DNA of 52,578 bases from Verrucomicrobiota bacterium (GTDB lineage Bacteria; Verrucomicrobiota; Verrucomicrobiia; Opitutales; Coraliomargaritaceae), in assembly GCA_039815375.1 (NCBI GenBank), contig JBCBZJ010000021.1:1-52578 (forward strand), given 5' to 3'. A program made the position numbers and the translations under genes. The notes under the pieces were generated by a model. The model did not search any database, was not told where the DNA came from, and saw nothing but the letters and a program-made list of their open reading frames with translations. Positions 30,700 through 45,845 of the stretch are shown here, piece after piece. Numbering within the stretch: position 1 is the first letter of the stretch; each line of letters starts with the position of its first letter.

Positions 30700-33192
30700 C
30701 TAATCCAAGACCTTTCCACTGATTGCTAGATCGACATCAGTCACTCGGGCATCAGAGACGATTCGAAGACCTCTCAAGCTAAGATCCTGATCTTCTGAAG
30801 GAACTAAAGATGCAGCTCTGCCCGAATCCACCGACGGAACAGGAGAATTCAGATTCTCGTTCGTCAAATTGTCAGTACGCTGGAGTCTAAAAGACATCGA
30901 TGTGCCGGTGTCAGCCCTGTCGCTGAAAACGTAAGTTTCGATAACGCTGTTTGCAGGTAATAGGTCGTTTTCACCGCCAATGTCCCCGAGGTTAAGAGCC
31001 CCCGAAGACGCATCCAAGCCTTCGAAAATCAAAGTATATTCATTCGATTGAGCTTGATTAAAAATAGTCTTAAGGGTGCCTTCAACAAGACCGTGCTTTC
31101 CGTTTCCACTTCGATCATGGACCTGGCGACCGTTCAGTGTTGGCTGAACGTAGAGGCACAATCCCACTCGCTGCAAAGAACTGAAGTTAGACCAGGAGGT
31201 GGGCGTCGTTCCAGTCGCAACAAAGGTGACATTGTCTGCATTGCTAGCCGCACCGACGTTTGTGAAATCATCGCCGGATTGAAAAGAATCAATTCGATAC
31301 TCAGCGCCGACAACTAAAGATCCACTTGTTAAAAGTGTGGATTCACCTCGGCCAAATTCATTTAAACTTGGGCCGCCATTAGCTAGTTGACTCCACTCAT
31401 CAGACGAAAGTGATTTATTGAATAGCCCATACTCAGAGACTTCAATGTCACCAACAAAGTTCGTCGATCCAGTTAATTGATTCTGGCCGAACATCACAGG
31501 TGCTGAAGCATCGAAAAGAGAACTCAAAGTCCCCGAATTATTTAAAACAGAACTCTCCGCTTCAGCGCCGTTCAGATAGATCTTCAATTCACCATTTGAA
31601 AAATCGATTCCGACAAGGACCCAATCACCAAAATCAACCGGAACGTCCGTCAAAATAGTTCTTCTATTGCTTGAATTATTAGTTGAGGAGCTGGCAAAAA
31701 AAGTGAGATCGCCCTCGGCATTGGTAGCTAAAGACCAACTGTTATTCAATGAAGACGACTGCCGCTGAGAAAAAATGCCCTTTGAAACAAGACCATTCGG
31801 AGCACGCACCCAGGCCCAGGCAGCCAAGCCACGGCCACCGTTAAAGGTATCTTCAGAGTGATGGATCGACGTGCTTGCAGCCTTGATCATGGCAACCTTT
31901 TTGGGATCCGGTCGGAAATTCAGCGAGGTAGATACCGCAGCAGCTGAGGCGAGAGTATATTCGAATTGCGAAACCTGGTAAATCAGATTGGCTGTCGCAT
32001 CTTCCAATGCTGCTTCTGGATGCACGCCGTCGCTGAGCGACAGCATATTTAACGTTGCCCAGCTTGAACCGAACGTCCCGAAGCAATCAAATAGGCTCCA
32101 GCTTTTGGCTGACGCCTTAGCGGTCATGGCCAAGACGGTTGGAGCAACGTCGTCATTTTCCTGCGCCCAAGGGGTCAATAAAAGCACCTCTGGATCGGCG
32201 GTTGAAGCCGTTAGCGCAGCGGAGAGCGCGTCGAGGCCCGTATCCTGTTGCGGCGATCGATCTGCATATTGCCACGTGAGCAGGTCCGGCGAGAAATTGT
32301 CTAGAAGCGTGCTCCATGTTGCAGATGAGGTCGCTGAGATGTTGGACGGTGTCGCGCTCGACTCGCCCATGTTCAGAACGACAATGGCATTACCCGTGGA
32401 ATCATAGGCCACAACAAAAGCTACTCTCACTGTGCCGCTTTGAGGCACCAATCTTATTGCATAGTTATCTTGCGTTGGGGCGACGGCCAGGTGCGTCAAG
32501 GTCGCGCTGGCACCATTGTCTGCATCAACAGTGCTGCCCTGCTTAATAAATCCTGAACTTGTCGAAGTGCTCGATAACTCGACATCAAAGGTCCCGGCTC
32601 CATTTTCAGCCACGTAGTAAACATCTATTACGTCGACATTATTAAAAAGTGAACCGCTCTGATCCCAAAAACGAACCGCGTCACTAGTCGATTGGTTTAA
32701 CGTGAAATAGTTCCCTTGGGGCGAAATGTCATAATCATTTTTAACCGTAAGAGTCGCAGATCCTTCAAGAGCATGATTCATGCGGCGCGTGCTTAGCGTC
32801 TCTGCAGAACCTGCATAGATAATCGGGACGTTATACTCAGCACTGAGACGATCCAGCACACCACCCATTGCCTGAAATGTGAGCGAGTCACCAATTGCGA
32901 AGACTTTTAGGACATTTGACGCTTCGCCTCGCCTCGCTTTTGCCAGTTTCATTTTTGTGATCGGGAAAGCATCGCGTGCAATCAAGTGGCGCGGCTCGAC
33001 ATCGGCAGCCCTTGCTAGCTCGGCGGGCGCGTCGTCTTCGCTGAACACGATCGTGCCGGTCGTGAAGTCATAAGTGCCGGTTGGTGTTAGATCGATCGAC
33101 TCAAGAATCGTGGTTAGCTCGGCCGCTTGGATGACCAGACCGAGTAAGGAGGCCTGCAGGCCCGCTGCAATGGTTTTGAACGGTATTTTCAT
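30700..33192 (-). CDS. SGNH/GDSL esterase + LamG (ConA-like) protein; candidate receptor-binding protein or de-O-acetylase
   Basis: AIGDSLT ... NMGESS ... SDGVHP (SGNH blocks I, II, V). LamG motifs WVR, DWVLVG, LKIYLNG, FNKSLS and DRSGNGKHG. Confidence 0.78.
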   Translation of the reverse strand: MKIPFKTIAAGLQASLLGLVIQAAELTTILESIDLTPTGTYDFTTGTIVFSEDDAPAELARAADVEPRHLIARDAFPITKMKLAKARRGEASNVLKVFAIGDSLTFQAMGGVLDRLSAEYNVPIIYAGSAETLSTRRMNHALEGSATLTVKNDYDISPQGNYFTLNQSTSDAVRFWDQSGSLFNNVDVIDVYYVAENGAGTFDVELSSTSTSSGFIKQGSTVDADNGASATLTHLAVAPTQDNYAIRLVPQSGTVRVAFVVAYDSTGNAIVVLNMGESSATPSNISATSSATWSTLLDNFSPDLLTWQYADRSPQQDTGLDALSAALTASTADPEVLLLTPWAQENDDVAPTVLAMTAKASAKSWSLFDCFGTFGSSWATLNMLSLSDGVHPEAALEDATANLIYQVSQFEYTLASAAAVSTSLNFRPDPKKVAMIKAASTSIHHSEDTFNGGRGLAAWAWVRAPNGLVSKGIFSQRQSSSLNNSWSLATNAEGDLTFFASSSTNNSSNRRTILTDVPVDFGDWVLVGIDFSNGELKIYLNGAEAESSVLNNSGTLSSLFDASAPVMFGQNQLTGSTNFVGDIEVSEYGLFNKSLSSDEWSQLANGGPSLNEFGRGESTLLTSGSLVVGAEYRIDSFQSGDDFTNVGAASNADNVTFVATGTTPTSWSNFSSLQRVGLCLYVQPTLNGRQVHDRSGNGKHGLVEGTLKTIFNQAQSNEYTLIFEGLDASSGALNLGDIGGENDLLPANSVIETYVFSDRADTGTSMSFRLQRTDNLTNENLNSPVPSVDSGRAASLVPSEDQDLSLRGLRIVSDARVTDVDLAISGKVLD

Positions 33193-35767: not shown

Positions 35768-36172
35768 TTACGTAGATGGATTAAGGACACAGATAACTTG
35801 CGGGTGACGTCTTTTGCATGGTTGCTTGGTGTCCACATCAAGCCAGTGGACGTGCCCGCCCCATCGAAGTTCAGCGCCTGCTTGAAGAAGCAAACCAAGG
35901 TTCCAGGGAACTGGTAGGATGAATACACTTCGCTTACCTTTTGACTGCTCCTCGACTGCCTTCCTCACAAATGCACTTGGCCCACCATGCGGCGCATCAA
36001 CTTTTAGGAACGGAGGATTTACGTAGTTCGATTGGCCCCATTCTTCTTCCAGACTATTGTAGCCTTCAGGCCGCGGACATGGGCATGGGTCAAAGTCGAA
36101 GTGAAATTCAGAAGCCAGTCTCTCGTATAAGTCTGGAGGCGTTAACCAATACCTGGGCTTATCTGTACTCAT
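35768..36172 (-). CDS. Phage DNA N6-adenine methyltransferase (phage Dam family)
   Basis: WLTP...F.FDFDPC and YVNPPF catalytic motif. Confidence 0.85.
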   Translation of the reverse strand: MSTDKPRYWLTPPDLYERLASEFHFDFDPCPCPRPEGYNSLEEEWGQSNYVNPPFLKVDAPHGGPSAFVRKAVEEQSKGKRSVFILPVPWNLGLLLQAGAELRWGGHVHWLDVDTKQPCKRRHPQVICVLNPST

Positions 36173-38869: not shown

Positions 38870-39733
38870 CTAGGCTGCTTCACGCAGCGTTGAGCTTTTC
38901 AGCGATCCAGTAGGCGATTTCCGGACAGATGGCGTCTCCGGCACCCCTAACCTCTTCAAGGTTGGACGCATCCAGTCCGGCGCAAAGCCCTGCCTCATCA
39001 ATCGCTCTCTGCCGGTCGTCCATCTGATTCCATCCGTTCGGCTCAGCAACGAGAAGCTCACAGCCAAGACTGATTCGGCTGGCGGCGTTGCTAGCCGTTT
39101 GAGTATGCCCAGCCCAAGCATCCGCTTGGGCCCATGGCTGGCAGCTCGATGCAAACGAGCAAGGTATTGCTTCCACTGGAGCGGCGTCAGATAAGAGCTC
39201 CAGGGGGGGCACTTCTCCAAGACCGCAGACCAAGAAAATCCTTTCACGTTTTTGGGGGACGCCGAAATATTGAGCATCAAGCACTCGCCAGAGTCCCATA
39301 TACCCGCAGTCGGCAAGGGCGCGGATGACCGCCTCAATGTCTGCGTGATCATTCGAAGCGAGCAGCGCCGGGACGTTTTCAAGAACCAACCAGCGGGGTT
39401 GTATTTCCCTGGCGAGACGTATGACTTCAAAGAAGAGACTGCTTTGGCTTCCTTTAAGTCCTTGGCGACCGCCACGTGCGCGTTGGCCCATGTTGGATAT
39501 ATTGGTGCAAGGGAATCCCGCTGCGATGCAATCCACTTCGCAAAGTTGCTCTGCTGAGACTTCGCGAACGTCTGTAAACTGTCGGGCATAGGGAAATCGG
39601 TCACCAAGCACAGCCCGTTTGATGTCGTCGATCTCGACTTGCCAAGATGTTTGCCATCCGGCTTTTTCGAAACCGATACTGAAGCCGCCGATTCCGGCAA
39701 AGAGTTCTCCGATTTTTGGTTTTTCTGATTCAT
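38870..39733 (-). CDS. Overlapping alternative-frame C5-MTase beta polypeptide carrying motif IX
   Basis: 287 stop-free codons overlapping the alpha gene, containing IRWTTGRERLMRQGFAPDW. The true start may be internal. Confidence 0.75.
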   Translation of the reverse strand: MNQKNQKSENSLPESAASVSVSKKPDGKHLGKSRSTTSNGLCLVTDFPMPDSLQTFAKSQQSNFAKWIASQRDSLAPIYPTWANAHVAVAKDLKEAKAVSSLKSYVSPGKYNPAGWFLKTSRRCSLRMITQTLRRSSAPLPTAGIWDSGECLMLNISASPKNVKGFSWSAVLEKCPPWSSYLTPLQWKQYLARLHRAASHGPKRMLGLGILKRLATPPAESVLAVSFSLLSRTDGIRWTTGRERLMRQGFAPDWMRPTLKRLGVPETPSVRKSPTGSLKSSTLREAA

Positions 39734-39737
39734 TCAT
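38880..39737 (-). CDS. DNA (cytosine-5)-methyltransferase, alpha polypeptide lacking motif IX
   Basis: Motifs I (LFAGIGG), IV (AGFPC), VI (ENV), VIII (QKRERIF) and X-like (GAGDAICP). Confidence 0.92.
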   Translation of the reverse strand: MNESEKPKIGELFAGIGGFSIGFEKAGWQTSWQVEIDDIKRAVLGDRFPYARQFTDVREVSAEQLCEVDCIAAGFPCTNISNMGQRARGGRQGLKGSQSSLFFEVIRLAREIQPRWLVLENVPALLASNDHADIEAVIRALADCGYMGLWRVLDAQYFGVPQKRERIFLVCGLGEVPPLELLSDAAPVEAIPCSFASSCQPWAQADAWAGHTQTASNAASRISLGCELLVAEPNGWNQMDDRQRAIDEAGLCAGLDASNLEEVRGAGDAICPEIAYWIAEKLNAA

Positions 39738-40642: not shown

Positions 40643-41743
40643 TTACGCGGCAGCTGCGGTTTGCTTGCGGATGCCGAGCGTGGAGGTGATGCTGTTCTTA
40701 CTCTTGTGAGCGACGGTGATCTCCTTCTTGCGTGCGAACTCCTTGACAAAGACCATGATGGCCTGTCCGCCGGTCAGCGCGACGAAGCGCTTGATATTGG
40801 ACGGGTCGTCCTTACCAAGGCCGCTGGCCGCATTGAACATGAGAACCCGGCTACCGATGAAGGTGCTCAGGCCGGTCCCGGAGCTGCGATAGCGCGCTTC
40901 GTTGAAAGCGAGCGCCTGCACCATGAGGTAGTCGGCTAGATCCTCCGGAGTGAAGTTTGAGCTGGCATAGCCGCCGGCATTGTTCTGCGCACGGTAGGCC
41001 TTACGACGCAGCGACCAGGCGGAGCTACCGTAGCCTACGCGGTTGGGACGAACGCCCACGCCGTTTTCCGAGAGAAGCAGGTCGTCGTTGACCTCCTCAT
41101 CCGGGTCCGTCGCAGCACCGTAAACAACAGCGCGGTTGGTCGCAGCGGCGTCGAGCTTGTTGAAGGCATCACGGAACTCAATGCGGAGAAGAATGCGGAT
41201 CAGGCGATCGACCATCTTTTGCTCCGCATCTGGATCTTCTTCGATTTCTCGCGCGTCGACACAACCAACGAGACCTTTCTCATCGAGACGGTCGTCGACC
41301 TCGTTCATGCGACCAGAGTCAACACGCTTGAAGTCGCCGCCCATCGCACGGACGACTTCGGAATCGTCCATAATCAGGAAGTGATCTTTGTGGCGCGCTT
41401 CTTTGTAGTTGAAGCGCTCCGGAACAGTTACGGCCGGTGCGTAAAACTCGAGTAGTTCTTGCAGCGGGTCATTATCCCAGCCGCCTACGCCGTAGTTCGT
41501 GAGTGCTTCATTATAGAAGCTACTTTCGAATCGGGCGGCATTGGCCTGTGCCAGGCAGATTTGCCCCGGCATAAGATCGCCGACTGCACACTCGGGGAGA
41601 ATGATATCTCCAGCGTGGTTGGCGTAGACGGCGGTATTGCCGACGAAAGTGCGGAGAGCATCAAGGACGCTGAACCACACGAAAGCCGAGAGCGCAAAGA
41701 TTGGGCTCACAAGCCATACAATGAATGTAATGAATCGATTCAT
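40643..41743 (-). CDS. Major capsid protein (HK97 fold, gpE-like) with N-terminal leader
   Basis: 366 aa, last head gene before a terminator. LTNYGVG, APAV.V, R..GG and G.RPN motifs. Confidence 0.78.
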   Translation of the reverse strand: MNRFITFIVWLVSPIFALSAFVWFSVLDALRTFVGNTAVYANHAGDIILPECAVGDLMPGQICLAQANAARFESSFYNEALTNYGVGGWDNDPLQELLEFYAPAVTVPERFNYKEARHKDHFLIMDDSEVVRAMGGDFKRVDSGRMNEVDDRLDEKGLVGCVDAREIEEDPDAEQKMVDRLIRILLRIEFRDAFNKLDAAATNRAVVYGAATDPDEEVNDDLLLSENGVGVRPNRVGYGSSAWSLRRKAYRAQNNAGGYASSNFTPEDLADYLMVQALAFNEARYRSSGTGLSTFIGSRVLMFNAASGLGKDDPSNIKRFVALTGGQAIMVFVKEFARKKEITVAHKSKNSITSTLGIRKQTAAAA

Positions 41744-41793
41744 AATGATGTGTATTTGAATATTGGTTACAGTGATTCGAGAAGCGCAGGCCC

Positions 41794-42291
41794 TTATACG
41801 ACGACTTCCTTGCGTGCGAGGCAGGGGTCGACTTCGACCTCTTCGCCATCGGCGGCTGCGGAGAGAGCGACACCGACTTGATAGTAGGTGCCAGCGATTG
41901 CGCTGAGCGTGGAGACGCGCCCAGCCGCCGCGGTATATACCGGGTCGCCGATAGCAACGTTGCCACTTGCGGTGAGCACGGCTGTTTCAAAGGCCGAACC
42001 CAGCAAGTTGACATTGGTATTGGTATCGATGACGGCTTCGTCATCATTCCAGCCAATCGGCAGGTCATTCGCGCCGCAGATGTCGACCTCGTTCGCCGCC
42101 GTGCCTGGCTTCAGGAGCAAGTGCTCGGACGCGAGAGCGACTTCTGCGCTGCGGGTGATGCAGCCAGGAGACTGCCCGACGGTGCCGGGCACGACAGCGT
42201 TGGCCTGAATGGCCACGCCGCCCGCCAAGGTGCGGAAAAAGTCCAGCGTGCCGAGGCAGACGAATGCAATGAGTGCAGTGATTTTATTCAT
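41794..42291 (-). CDS. Capsid decoration/cement protein (DUF2190-like) with N-terminal leader
   Basis: ASGNVAIGDPVY..AAGRV...VGVALSAAADGEEVEV. Confidence 0.75.
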   Translation of the reverse strand: MNKITALIAFVCLGTLDFFRTLAGGVAIQANAVVPGTVGQSPGCITRSAEVALASEHLLLKPGTAANEVDICGANDLPIGWNDDEAVIDTNTNVNLLGSAFETAVLTASGNVAIGDPVYTAAAGRVSTLSAIAGTYYQVGVALSAAADGEEVEVDPCLARKEVVV

Positions 42292-42341
42292 GATGTACGT
42301 GATTATTGGTTTCTGTTCTGTTGCGATTGGTCGCCGGGGGC

Positions 42342-42725
42342 CTACTTCGTGGCTCCGGCTTCTTCGGCAATGCGGGCGTCCTCGCGGACTTGATTCTGCT
42401 GAGCTTCGATGGCCTGCGAACGGTTGAGGCCAGCGGTCACCTTAGCGGCGATCTCCTTCGCATACTTGTGCTCGAATTCGTTGGAAGCGTCGACGAGCTC
42501 GACACCGGTTGGGCCGGCCTTTCCGAGTGCCTTGAGCTTTTCTTGGGTCTCAAGGTGCGCGGCTTTTTCGGCGGCGAGTTGGTCTTCGAGTGATGGCGCC
42601 TCATTTTCGTTGGGCTTCTTTTTAGGAGTCGCGTTCGCAAAGACCGCGGTTTTGCCGAGCACGGTACGACTAGAGTCGACCACACTGAAAGCTATGCAGC
42701 AGATGAGTGCTTTGATGTTATTCAT
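42342..42725 (-). CDS. Hypothetical head-associated protein with the shared N-terminal leader
   Basis: Lies between the scaffold and decoration genes and carries the same leader motif as the capsid proteins. Confidence 0.7.
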   Translation of the reverse strand: MNNIKALICCIAFSVVDSSRTVLGKTAVFANATPKKKPNENEAPSLEDQLAAEKAAHLETQEKLKALGKAGPTGVELVDASNEFEHKYAKEIAAKVTAGLNRSQAIEAQQNQVREDARIAEEAGATK

Positions 42726-42781: not shown

Positions 42782-44299
42782 TTACTCGCCTTCGGTAGTG
42801 TCGCTCATTGCCTCGTAGAGCTTCTTGCCCTTTTCAGTCTTGCGGAACTCGCTATGAGCTTTCTGGTATTCGCCCTGCTTGAAGTCGTAGCCCTTCTCAT
42901 TGGCGAAGTCGGCGAGGCCTTCGTCGAAAAGCTGGCTGGCGTTGGCCTGGTCCTGGATCTCGCCTTTGCGCTTGCCGAGATCATTGGTCTGACCGCCCGT
43001 CGGAAGCACCTCGTCGGCAGTGAGGATTTCTTCAGATGCGTTGGCGAAGTCGGCAGCACCGGCGAGGCTGGTGATGGTTTCTTCGCGGCGGGACTCTTCG
43101 CAGCGGTTTTCACTGATGGCCTGCTCGACGATGAGCGTGGCGCGTTCGCGGCGCTCGTTGGCAATGTCAGAGGTGAGCTGAGTGACGCGCTCAGTGGCTG
43201 TGGCGAGGTCCGCCTGCGCGGTGGTCAACTGCTCGTTGGCCTGTGCGTTGACTGTTTGACTGAAAGCCTCTGTCAGCCGTGAGATCAGATCCTCAAGCGT
43301 GGGGGCCGAGGCACCGTCCTCGCGGAAGGCGTCGATTTGCTCGTCGGTATAGCCGAGCACTTTCATGATCGCCTTTTCGAGATCCCAGTAGCCGTTGGCC
43401 TGGTCGCGGAGTCCGGTAACACGCGCTTCGATTTGCTCAGCGGTGGGAGCGCCGTCAGTATTATTGGCGAGCGCGTTGGCTTGGTCCTCTGAAAATCCGA
43501 GGAGCATGAGTAGTGATTTTATCCATTCCATAGTGTGTGGTGGTTGTGATTGAGATTGCGGGAGCGCATTCGCGGCACTGCCCAGAATGTTTGGCGTGGG
43601 CGTGAGACCCGCGGATAGAAGCTTGAAGGGCTCCCATATTCGTTTGCCGTTTTCATCACCGGTCATGAGCGAGACCCAGCGGGGCGACCAGTAGAGCTTC
43701 TTATCTCCGGAGAGGAGTTCGTTGCCCTGGTCCGTAAAGTCCGGCTTGATGTAGAGACCGTCTTCACGGGTCTCCATGTTCATGATGTCGGCACGGATCA
43801 TGAAGTCGTTGTGCCCCTGAGCAGCAAACTGAGGATGGTCCGGGTGACCGTAGTAAGCAGGCGGATACGGCTTGGTCTTGAAAATCATCCGGACGGCCGC
43901 GTTTGCGGCAGCCTTGAACCGGGTCACTATTGCGTTACTTTGCTTGGTCTGGAATCGCTGTATGTCATTCGGCCCTTGAGGGTGGTCGCCAAACTTGACC
44001 AAGCGCATGAAGCCATCTTCGCCCATAGGGCCACTCGTTGAATTAGCGATGCACTCGATTTGCATGCCGCCTGAAAGGTCCTGAACGATAGGTTCGATTA
44101 TGGGCAAATCTGGCAGCTCAGGGGCCTCATTGGCGAAGTCGGCCAAAATCGGCTCGGAGCTTTCGCAAGGAATTTTACCCAACCCCCTTGCAAATCGGTT
44201 TAAACTTGTTGCAAAACGCCCTTCAGGAGCGCCACGCCCCATGACAAGGACTTGGCGGTTTTCATTATTCTGGGCGATTCTGTGGCTTTCCTTATTCAT
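42782..44299 (-). CDS. Prohead protease/scaffold (Mu gpI/gpZ-like)
   Basis: GHP, REDGLY, FT..G.ELL, Y.SP.W and LLSAGLTPTPNI protease motifs, followed by an acidic helical scaffold half. Confidence 0.85.
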   Translation of the reverse strand: MNKESHRIAQNNENRQVLVMGRGAPEGRFATSLNRFARGLGKIPCESSEPILADFANEAPELPDLPIIEPIVQDLSGGMQIECIANSTSGPMGEDGFMRLVKFGDHPQGPNDIQRFQTKQSNAIVTRFKAAANAAVRMIFKTKPYPPAYYGHPDHPQFAAQGHNDFMIRADIMNMETREDGLYIKPDFTDQGNELLSGDKKLYWSPRWVSLMTGDENGKRIWEPFKLLSAGLTPTPNILGSAANALPQSQSQPPHTMEWIKSLLMLLGFSEDQANALANNTDGAPTAEQIEARVTGLRDQANGYWDLEKAIMKVLGYTDEQIDAFREDGASAPTLEDLISRLTEAFSQTVNAQANEQLTTAQADLATATERVTQLTSDIANERRERATLIVEQAISENRCEESRREETITSLAGAADFANASEEILTADEVLPTGGQTNDLGKRKGEIQDQANASQLFDEGLADFANEKGYDFKQGEYQKAHSEFRKTEKGKKLYEAMSDTTEGE

Positions 44300-45845
44300 T
44301 GTTATCGTCGAATTGGATTTGAACCGCTGCAGCTCCCTCAGCGGCGGAAGTGCCGAGGGCCTTTTCGAGCAGCTGCGCGAAGGCAGATTGCGAGGGGTCG
44401 ATCCCGCGGTCCTTGAGCGCGGAGCTCAGGGCCTGGAGCGCGGCGACATATTCATCCGGAGTGTCGGCTTCTTCGACGGCCTGTAGTAGTTCAAGCACGT
44501 CTTCGAAATCTTCTGCCATCGTTCCAGCCAACTGGCGGAGCTCCTCTTCGGTCGCATTTGCCTGATCGTCGAGTTCCCGCGAAGGAGCTGCGGGCTCGGC
44601 GCGATTAGCTGCAGGGGTGAGGATAGCATCCTGCGGCTCGTCTGCAGTAACCGGGAGTGACAGGCGTTCCTTGTAGTCACTCATCGGAATCTCAGCGCCA
44701 TAGTCCGCCGCCTTGTGCATCTTCTCCTGTTCGGCTTTTTCATCGAGCCGGTCCGGGGCTTGCAGCTTGAAGTAGCAAAGCGGCTTCACGTCGCGGCCGA
44801 ACTTCCAGCGCAGTGCCGGCAGCACGATCTGGTGCTCGAAGGTCTCGTTGATCATGTCGACATCATCCTCGAGGAGGATGTCGCTCTCGTCCTGTTGCAG
44901 GCTCGCGCCCATCTTGTCCTCACCGGACATCGTCGAGAGATCGGAACCGCGCCAGATGATCGCGATGCCACGCTCAGCACGCTCGACCATACCGGGATAA
45001 GGAAGCTGCCCCTTGGCGGTGAGGTCATGCACCTTGAATTCGGCGTGGCGCGAATGTTGAGCGGCAAACTCAGCGCCGATCGCGCGGAGAGCCTCAAGCC
45101 CTTCGTCCCACTCCTGGCTGCGATACTTCGCGTCGGTCGCACTGGTCACGAAGGGCATGCCGCACCGCTCGCTATAGGTCAGCCAGTCTTTGAGCGGAAG
45201 CGCCTTATAGATGTAATTGACCATCGTGGCCACCATCAGGCCGTCGCCCATCGTCACCATCCAGCCGAGCGGCTCGAGCTCGTCGCCTTGTTGATTGTTC
45301 CCGCGCGGCAAGAACCGGAGCAGCCCCGTGGTGCTCTCAAAGAACCAGAGCGGCACGAAGGTCATGCCGAGCTCAAGCGAGCCGTCGCGCTGCGGACGCC
45401 AATCGAGCTCGTGGACCGCATAGCGCTTGCCGATTGCATCGCACATCTGGTGAATCGCCAGACGGACGCCGCCCCGCGTATTGCGCTCCAGCGCGTGGGT
45501 GCAGGTCAGTGAGTTAAAGAGATTCTCAAGAAACTTGGTCTGCTCCTGTAGCTGCGCTTCCGTGCCGTGGTCTTCCCACGACTCGTATGGAGCGATTGAA
45601 TACGGCTGACGGCTGGGCGCTTTCTTCCGCTTCGAGCTGACAGACTTGATCGTGTCGTCGGTGTTCTCGATCTTCTCCATTGCCCAGGCGCACTCACGAA
45701 GGATACCACGATCAAACTCCTCAAGTAGGCGGACCGCCTTCTGCGGCGTGAAACCCTTGAGCGGATTGAAGCGCGCCTGCAGCTCGTAGCGAACGCGTGA
45801 GATGTCGACCTTCGATTCAGAATTCTTTTTGATCTTATCAGCCAT
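44292..45845 (-). CDS. Portal protein (Mu gp29/DUF935-like)
   Basis: DAIGKRYAVHEL.W, GLM, DW..Y.ER.GMP and G..LST motifs; follows the terminase gene. Confidence 0.88.
   Translation of the reverse strand: MADKIKKNSESKVDISRVRYELQARFNPLKGFTPQKAVRLLEEFDRGILRECAWAMEKIENTDDTIKSVSSKRKKAPSRQPYSIAPYESWEDHGTEAQLQEQTKFLENLFNSLTCTHALERNTRGGVRLAIHQMCDAIGKRYAVHELDWRPQRDGSLELGMTFVPLWFFESTTGLLRFLPRGNNQQGDELEPLGWMVTMGDGLMVATMVNYIYKALPLKDWLTYSERCGMPFVTSATDAKYRSQEWDEGLEALRAIGAEFAAQHSRHAEFKVHDLTAKGQLPYPGMVERAERGIAIIWRGSDLSTMSGEDKMGASLQQDESDILLEDDVDMINETFEHQIVLPALRWKFGRDVKPLCYFKLQAPDRLDEKAEQEKMHKAADYGAEIPMSDYKERLSLPVTADEPQDAILTPAANRAEPAAPSRELDDQANATEEELRQLAGTMAEDFEDVLELLQAVEEADTPDEYVAALQALSSALKDRGIDPSQSAFAQLLEKALGTSAAEGAAAVQIQFDDNNE

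Follow-up and report, generated by a model that had tools for sequence, protein, structure and literature searches.

A shared hydrophobic leader and a probable asparagine cleavage site in the head proteins of a Mu-like prophage of Verrucomicrobiota

Why do three adjacent and otherwise unrelated head proteins of a prophage begin with the same leader? We examined this question in a stretch of 52,578 nucleotides from a Verrucomicrobiota bacterium (assembly GCA_039815375.1, contig JBCBZJ010000021.1; hereafter the window), in which the major capsid protein, a cement (decoration) protein and a protein of 127 amino acids (aa) are encoded side by side. All three are part of a prophage head cluster, located on contig C47 of a genome of 3.56 Mb, where the genes follow one another on the minus strand in the order terminase, portal (PF06074), protease-scaffold (PF10123), 127-aa open reading frame (ORF), cement (PF09956), capsid and a gene at the position of gp36. 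The original prediction was that the three proteins share a hydrophobic leader ending in Ala-Asn, that this leader is a portable head-targeting or membrane-tethering propeptide gathering capsid, cement and a cargo protein, and that the prohead protease of the phage removes it. The ORFs, the leaders and two further segments likened to them were all found in place on the minus strand, and the shared leader is a real, family-wide feature. Comparison with related head modules shows two separate features, a probable Asn-specific maturation site and a portable hydrophobic leader that is most often carried by the cement protein.

The block common to the three leaders, D-x-x-R-T-x-x-G-x-x-A-[VI]-x-A-N, has exactly three occurrences when the genome is read in all six frames, one each in the capsid, cement and 127-aa genes. 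Seven of its 15 columns are identical in the three proteins, compared with a maximum of four in 1000 residue shuffles and of five in 1000 random triples of cement leaders of the family. Beyond the Ala-Asn, an Asp, Arg, Thr, Gly and Ala are retained in all three copies, and the Asp, Arg and Gly are also found in three related cements. The gap-free colinearity that had been described holds for these last 15 residues but not for the full leader, since colinearity over 31 residues is confined to the cement and 127-aa leaders, that of the capsid being 11 residues longer (42). Two supposed echoes did not survive comparison: the second capsid segment, far from repeating the leader, is the ordinary propeptide of the family, ending at an Asn68 that is invariant in 63 aligned homologues, and the segment before the protease domain, which had been taken for a longer shared element, resembles this propeptide only in its Ala-Asn end in the nearest relative (L062; 69% capsid identity, 46% protease identity).

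The starts upstream of the leaders look genuine. Downstream starts of the cement and 127-aa ORFs are ruled out, as neither contains a second Met, and the DNA before each of the three Met1 codons is A/T-rich (0.64–0.76), like that of the other phage genes. In the capsid gene, the A/T fraction is 0.36 upstream of Met58 and 0.72 upstream of a GTG at codon 12; a start at Met58 is unlikely, as it would leave a propeptide of 11 residues compared with a family minimum of 20. The closest capsid homologues have no leader, and their Met1 aligns with Ala41. Between the capsid and 127-aa blocks (15 codons), there are 4, 2 and 9 differences at first, second and third codon positions, respectively, and five of their nine common residues use different codons. 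From the distribution of these differences, the two copies appear old and selected at the protein level, a suggestion that comes from a small sample. One contig assembled from reads of a marine metagenome (run X1), which may be the source of this DNA, covers the leader region with zero differences; no RNA run was listed among those containing the stretch. Separately, a low-depth contig of run X2, with partial coverage, carries a Val-to-Ile change at capsid leader codon 9 (window position 41719), which may be an error.

To place the leader in its family, we used an alignment of 63 capsids as the query, which yielded 139 loci, and a single-protein scan of viral contigs gave none. Together with the window, these made 140 stretches, of which five without a full capsid and then 34 near-copies (90% identity) were dropped, so that 135 and finally 101 related Mu-like head modules remained, mainly from Verrucomicrobiota hosts; among 61 genome loci with related capsids, the titles name Verrucomicrobiota 49 times, Kiritimatiellota four times and Lentisphaerota once. 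ORFs were called from the first ATG, so that some starts are uncertain, and the assessment of leaders combined hydropathy thresholds with inspection by eye.

Across this set, an Asn marks the junctions of the head proteins. The capsid propeptide ends in Asn in 98/101 cases and in His in the other three, with Ala at P2 in 87 and Glu, Ala or Asp at P1′ in 93. At the junction between cement leader and domain, Asn is found exactly in place in 83/98 cements and within three residues in 89/98; eight of the other nine begin at about the junction without a leader, and one is a fragment. Leaderless cements start at or just past the x-Asn site. Among the 150 top database matches of the cement, 147 have Asn in the expected stretch, and the predicted structure of the window cement is least confident at residues 29–32, between the leader helix and the domain. 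In the protease, Asn57 is present in 73/85 sequences and Asn244, at the junction of domain and scaffold, in 81/85. Ala-Asn is enriched 1.98-fold in 87 proteases (523 observed vs. 264 expected), the corresponding ratios being 1.01 for gp36-like proteins and 0.93 for the remaining ORFs; the window protease has 12 where 3.05 are expected, and ten of these align with an Ala-Asn in L062. In portals, the dipeptide is avoided in the core (0.62) and enriched in the linker behind it (1.61), 40 of 66 linkers having one. C-terminal cutting takes place in the Mu portal, and sites in the portal linker would fit this. A short motif thus stands at the propeptide ends and is repeated in the scaffold and at the protease termini, as expected of propeptides cut by a prohead protease. 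Hence, x-Asn, mostly Ala-Asn, is very probably the cut site of the Mu-like prohead protease, and the predicted removal after Ala-Asn by the phage enzyme is backed by the comparison. As Asn is the most conserved position, we infer that the cut falls after it, usually with a hydrophobic residue at P3 and Glu, Ala, Ser or Asp at P1′. His152 (84/85), Ser229 (83/85) and Ser205 (77/85) are conserved in the protease and intact in the window, and they are candidate catalytic residues.

The site also shifts in concert between proteins. Wherever the capsid site is His (three loci), protease position 244 is His as well, and in two of the three so is position 57. In L074 and L079, Ile, Leu or Val precedes Asn at the capsid and cement sites, and the protease has 14–15 such dipeptides and one Ala-Asn; in L050, the cement, capsid and protease leaders all end in REECHN. 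Cement pentamers fit the Asn/His sites of their own protease better than those of other loci (14.55 vs. 10.52; maximum of 10,000 permutations 11.71; 79 loci, kinship uncorrected), and Fisher tests of the co-variation across proteins gave p = 0.002 and p = 1e-5. Several observations weigh against this reading of the site. With independent tree pairs, the co-variation was not significant (4.2 vs. 0.0 of 10, median p = 0.125; 4.6 vs. 0.1 of 11, median p = 0.0625), and the His shift counts as one event because it is confined to one clade. Moreover, P2 is loose, with Ala at only 45/89 cement sites, and Ala-Asn is enriched inside the protease domain too (1.72). The co-variation therefore gives a consistent direction and not a proof. 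A natural negative control is provided by L141–L144, a distant phage-like group in the host's family: its protease-cement-capsid cassette lacks leaders and Ala-Asn enrichment (one or two Ala-Asn in the available parts of its proteases), its cement is leaderless and its leaderless capsids begin about three residues past the position of Asn68.

Two clades with altered sites were observed alongside. In L117, L121 and L135 (also L049), His replaces Asn at the capsid site and the protease junctions and the cement is leaderless, which likely reflects a change of protease specificity. The clade of L074, L079 and L013 has Ile/Leu/Val-Asn where Ala-Asn is usual; this holds for the capsid and cement, for the linker of the portal and for the protease.

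We then looked at the leader itself. In the cement, 69/89 leaders are strongly hydrophobic (11-residue hydropathy of at least 2.0), 53/89 pass a 19-residue threshold for a membrane span and 51/89 have an uncharged run of at least 17 residues. The cement family comprises 1,367 clusters at E 1e-10, and 127 of its 150 top matches have a hydrophobic leader, in a search whose profile had included the leader. The capsid propeptides, which are equally disposable, are hydrophobic in only 11/101 cases, so disposability alone does not explain this property. An artefact of AT-rich mRNA is ruled out too, as the GC content at third codon positions is not lowered in the leader (0.77 vs. 0.78 in the mature part). 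For these two reasons, the hydrophobicity of the leader has likely been selected. Basic residues usually follow: past the hydrophobic stretch, the net charge is +1.3 in cement leaders, and in 54 ORFs of these loci with signal-peptide-like starts it is −0.17 (p = 5e-6). N-terminal membrane anchors of the ZipA type consist of about 17–20 uncharged residues followed by basic ones.

Beyond the cement, a hydrophobic leader was found in 7/101 capsids, 8/87 proteases and 2/42 small proteins of the 127-aa family in the loci, as well as in P0138. These counts follow removal by eye of three of ten capsids (L056, L132 and L030, with an ordinary propeptide only), one of nine proteases (L125) and one of three small proteins (L098). 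On the tree, the capsid leaders require six changes and the protease leaders seven. For 11 of the 17 secondary leaders, at least one of two scores places the cement leader of the same locus in the top five of 81; the script cut the capsid leaders of the window and L046 at an earlier Asn, which makes their ranks over the last eight residues invalid. The simplest history would be a repeated copying of the 5′ end of the cement gene onto neighbouring head genes, the direction from cement to neighbours resting on prevalence because the tree is unrooted. The predicted portability is thus supported by scattered copies on capsid, protease and 127-aa genes. Contrary to the proposal that the leader gathers capsid, cement and cargo, 94/101 capsids and 40/42 homologues of the 127-aa protein do without it, those of the nearest relative included, and in L062 it is present on the cement only. 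The leader is portable among head genes, yet it is not needed to gather them.

The 127-aa protein does not look like a passive cargo either, as had been suggested, but like a capsid-binding accessory with its own predicted binding module. Its family sits between protease and cement, conserves only a C-terminal helical hairpin and, in a few members, gives weak HeH or Mu-like_Pro matches below the cut-off. Residues 70–127 co-folded with the mature capsid scored 0.82, compared with 0.00 for the best control; the runs agreed in at least 91% of contacts, with a predicted local distance difference test (pLDDT) of the partner of at least 83. The co-folding used our own alignments, and its mark was reached by 116/157 solved complexes and 2/215 mismatched pairs. 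This supports capsid binding, and it may also reflect a likeness to solved scaffold-capsid pairs. Given the predicted hairpin, the leader would not be required, and the 127-aa protein likely finds the capsid through this module.

What, then, could the leader do? We give about an even chance to the reading that it is a cleavable membrane tether, in which a hydrophobic helix followed by an Ala-Asn cut by the Mu-like prohead protease would hold head precursors on the membrane; the comparative evidence supports membrane tethering, and a membrane role as such is slightly favoured. The leader would have originated on the cement gene, with its 5′ end copied to neighbours, here the capsid and 127-aa genes. 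Newly made precursors would carry the leader, and this would partition into the inner membrane while the rest of the protein stayed on the cytoplasmic side. In many relatives it would span the membrane as an anchor; the cement and 127-aa leaders of the window would more likely lie along its surface as a helix. Capsids and proteases tolerate the same leader, which makes export unlikely. Cutting at x-Asn would follow, with the protease trimming its own ends and the capsid propeptide, cleaving the scaffold and the portal linker and removing the leaders, leading to release; the two capsid sites, at 42 and 68, would fit release followed by maturation. The tether might either make the membrane an assembly platform or withhold the cement until mature expanded shells are available, a possibility in keeping with the undecorated procapsids of JBD30 (PMC11445458). 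A platform of this kind is known for T4 and SPN3US, whose proheads form at the inner membrane and are freed from it by proteolysis (PMC9026906, PMC7411985). A wider extension is possible if doubtful: in a large group of Mu-like phages of Verrucomicrobiota, cement proteins (in some lineages also capsid, protease or accessory) would carry cleavable lipid anchors by which heads are built at the inner membrane, fibre-type parts would be exported, the Asn-specific protease would be the release switch and the leader a swappable module able to bring any protein to this assembly line.

The tether reading has several difficulties. An internal protease would have to reach an outer cement, and capsid subunits tied to the membrane would have to close a shell. 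The orientation is ambiguous, with 35/67 cement leaders more basic after the hydrophobic stretch and 27/67 before it; 20/89 are weakly or moderately hydrophobic, and eight cements have none. A membrane span is out of reach for the uncharged stretches of the window cement (13 residues) and 127-aa (11 residues) leaders, and the capsid leader has 24, but an Asp follows. In addition, six of the 17 secondary leaders are not close to their own cement, and the unrooted FastTree tree does not separate gain from loss.

Alternatively, the copies on capsid and 127-aa gene may simply be tolerated hitchhikers of a duplicated gene start, with the leader mattering on the cement only and the copies being harmless because all before the Asn is cut off. 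Such copies are indeed rare and scattered (six tree changes for seven capsids vs. 6.9 in shuffles), the nearest relative lives without them on capsid and 127-aa protein, and normal 80alpha phage is obtained even when its capsid protein is pre-cleaved or uncleavable (PMC5744158). We nevertheless consider this rather unlikely, as the window copies have diverged at silent sites (five of nine residues, in a 15-codon sample) and have kept both the motif and the hydrophobic stretch. A further alternative, to which we assign a low probability, is a targeting sequence as in T4, whose helix would bind the scaffold core or other leaders, draw the three proteins into the prohead and then be cut at Asn. 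The residues retained beyond the cut site, three of them also in related cements, speak for it, as does the use of shared cleaved propeptides in T4 (PMC9026906); the leader varies widely in length and sequence within the family, however, 94/101 capsids are leaderless, the 127-aa hairpin is predicted to bind the capsid without it (0.82 vs. 0.00) and the usual carrier is an outer cement-fold protein.

The other explanations are far less probable. The leaders might be Sec signal peptides or inward-pointing anchors, with the proteins exported and cut by host signal peptidase like fibre-type proteins; in favour, 54/603 downstream ORFs of the same loci have classical signal-peptide-like starts (a count that includes spurious ORFs; one is in the window). 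Signal peptidase follows an Ala-x-Ala rule, which the Ala-Asn-Ala at the window cement and 127-aa sites and at capsid residues 67–69 matches. This sequence is, however, found at only 4/89 cement sites, and capsid Asn42 lacks it; between the hydrophobic stretch and the site there are 15 residues, Asp and Arg among them, unlike the short uncharged c-region of substrates of Sec and signal peptidase I, and the charge after the core is net positive. The same motif is also found in the soluble scaffold and portal, a cysteine pair in the cement is rejected, as its two cysteines do not co-occur beyond chance (28/98), and a capsid or protease outside the cell could not package DNA, export being incompatible with established head biology. 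This makes export very unlikely. It is no more credible that the leader is retained on the virion or acts in the mRNA, as a hairpin setting translation, with the Asn motif being structural: among leader RNAs, those of capsid and cement are more stably folded than their shuffles (z = −2.39 and −2.74), but that of the 127-aa gene is not (z = 0.22) and that of L062 is not clear (z = −1.10); in 55 cements, the first 30 codons and the mature stretch behave alike against synonymous shuffles (−0.38 vs. −0.40), and the motif recurs in unrelated folds and linkers. The least probable agent is a host cytoplasmic or intramembrane protease, Prp-like or rhomboid, for which there is the precedent of 80alpha, where host Prp cuts the leader of capsid and scaffold (PMC5744158). 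PF04327 is absent from the 99.9% complete host genome (the control was positive in 3/14 genomes), and the full motif is not found in any host ORF. The coding strand of the loci carries no rhomboid-like ORF, the one ORF with four hydrophobic spans lacking GxSG, and the motif shifts with the lineage of the phage protease.

Signal-peptide-like ORFs directly follow the capsid gene in 15/89 loci, with more further downstream, and lack the basic patch of the cement leaders; those just after the capsid include L104, L120, L134, L014, L019, L073, L091, L101, L022, L111, L123 and L126, and others lie between protease and capsid (L012, L025, L088, L094). In the window, an 830-aa fibre- or spike-like ORF with Laminin_G_3 (30700–33192, minus strand) lies among the tail genes and has a classical signal-peptide-like start.

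Among known systems, T4 is similar in that unrelated head proteins begin with a common propeptide, removed by a cut after a short motif that is also present throughout the scaffold; these tags are 10–19 residues long, sit on internal proteins and are cut after Leu/Ile-x-Glu (PMC9026906). The leaders described here are instead 31–42 residues long, hydrophobic, end in Ala-Asn and lie mainly on the cement, their carriers being cement, capsid, protease and a predicted capsid binder. The membrane link of T4 is the portal, and Soc and Hoc are uncut (PMC9026906, PMC7411985). T4, phiKZ and SPN3US alike use one short motif both to end propeptides and to break up the scaffold (PMC9026906, PMC7411985), the pattern seen here, with the difference that those proteases cut after Glu and that Asn would take its place in the present phages. 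In 80alpha, a leader of 13–14 residues, common with ribosomal protein L27, is cut Phe|Ala by host Prp (PMC5744158); as in our case, one leader is carried by non-homologous virion proteins and, in other phages, by further genes, but the window has neither Prp nor a host copy of the motif, which follows the phage protease. The portal PF06074, protease-scaffold PF10123 and HK97-fold capsid resemble the modules of Mu (gpH/gpI/gpT) and of the Pseudomonas phage JBD30. The decoration trimers of JBD30 are absent from the procapsid and have a Soc-like fold with the N-terminal 52 residues unresolved (PMC11445458); its accessible text names neither a cleavage motif nor a hydrophobic leader. The mature cement domain of the window is instead predicted to fold like the phi29 gp8.5 base and the HFTV1, Pam3, Borrelia BB1 and TW1 cements, with a TM-score (normalised by target) of about 0.7 for HFTV1 and phi29; the phi29 and BB1 matches come from procapsid entries, and the Pfam model Phage_cement_2 spans the domain and not the leader.

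One x-Asn motif thus predicts the mature ends of five head proteins across a family, and a cut rule at Asn would contrast with the Glu of the T4, phiKZ and SPN3US enzymes (PMC9026906, PMC7411985). A literature search, from which subscription papers including the older Mu head work were mostly absent, returned no cut rule for Mu-like I proteases, no Asn-cutting prohead protease and no description of the leader or family. If the leader does bind the membrane, it would give head parts an explicit anchor that can be cut off; for SPN3US, prohead attachment to the membrane has been shown, and the accessible text names no anchor (PMC7411985). It would also follow that head genes exchange a processing module by repeated copying.

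Table 1. Features of the head gene cluster in the window, in window coordinates.
Feature	Position	Strand	Remarks
Major capsid protein, 366 aa	40643..41743	-	Predicted HK97 fold, best match 3bjq
Ordinary family capsid propeptide, residues 43–68	41540..41617	-	Ends at invariant Asn68
Capsid leader, residues 1–42	41618..41743	-	24 uncharged residues, then shared 15-residue block (41618–41662), end Ala41-Asn42
Cement (decoration) protein, 165 aa	41794..42291	-	PF09956; predicted fold like phi29 gp8.5 base, HFTV1 and Pam3 capsid chains
Cement leader, residues 1–31	42199..42291	-	Predicted helix 2–23, flexible linker, Ala30-Asn31; shared block 42199–42243
Conserved helical hairpin of 127-aa protein, about residues 94–119	42369..42446	-	Predicted binding to capsid residues 192–204, 352, 355
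Leader of 127-aa protein, residues 1–31	42633..42725	-	End Ala30-Asn31; not on 40/42 homologues in loci
Mu-like prohead protease-scaffold, 505 aa	42782..44299	-	PF10123; 12 Ala-Asn; conserved Met257 opens scaffold part
Protease residues 74–86 (supposed echo segment)	44042..44080	-	Nearest relative keeps Ala-Asn end, not segment start
Mu-type portal	44292..45845	-	PF06074; only two Ala-Asn (414, 430), both in linker after portal core

The identities given for capsid and cement in the original prediction hold (Table 1). The capsid, which had no Pfam or PHROG match and only weak matches in a sequence search of the PDB, is assigned to the HK97 fold from a model with pLDDT 84 that matches 3bjq (E 2.7e-12) and many phage capsids. 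The cement passes PF09956 (Phage_cement_2, DUF2190) with 26.9 bits at a cut-off of 24, and its fold matches agree. The cluster is recognised as a Mu-like head module by a PF06074 portal (E 8e-52) followed by a PF10123 protease-scaffold (E 1.7e-12). PF09299, from the replication of transposable phages, had no match in the genome and none in the control genomes either, and the contig ends beyond the head genes. The window protease and cement gave zero tblastn matches in 50,697 GenBank phage records.

Some minor observations concern the neighbourhood of these genes. The scaffold part of the protease opens with two similar helical units (43290–43531, minus strand; from Met257 and from Met313), which are also present in L062, and a similar unit starts some members of the 127-aa family. 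Four cement homologues (P0160, P0161, P0162, P0170) have two cement domains in one chain. Lastly, a C-5 cytosine methyltransferase (38880–39737, minus strand) and a weak Dam-like ORF (35768–36172, minus strand) lie within the structural gene region.

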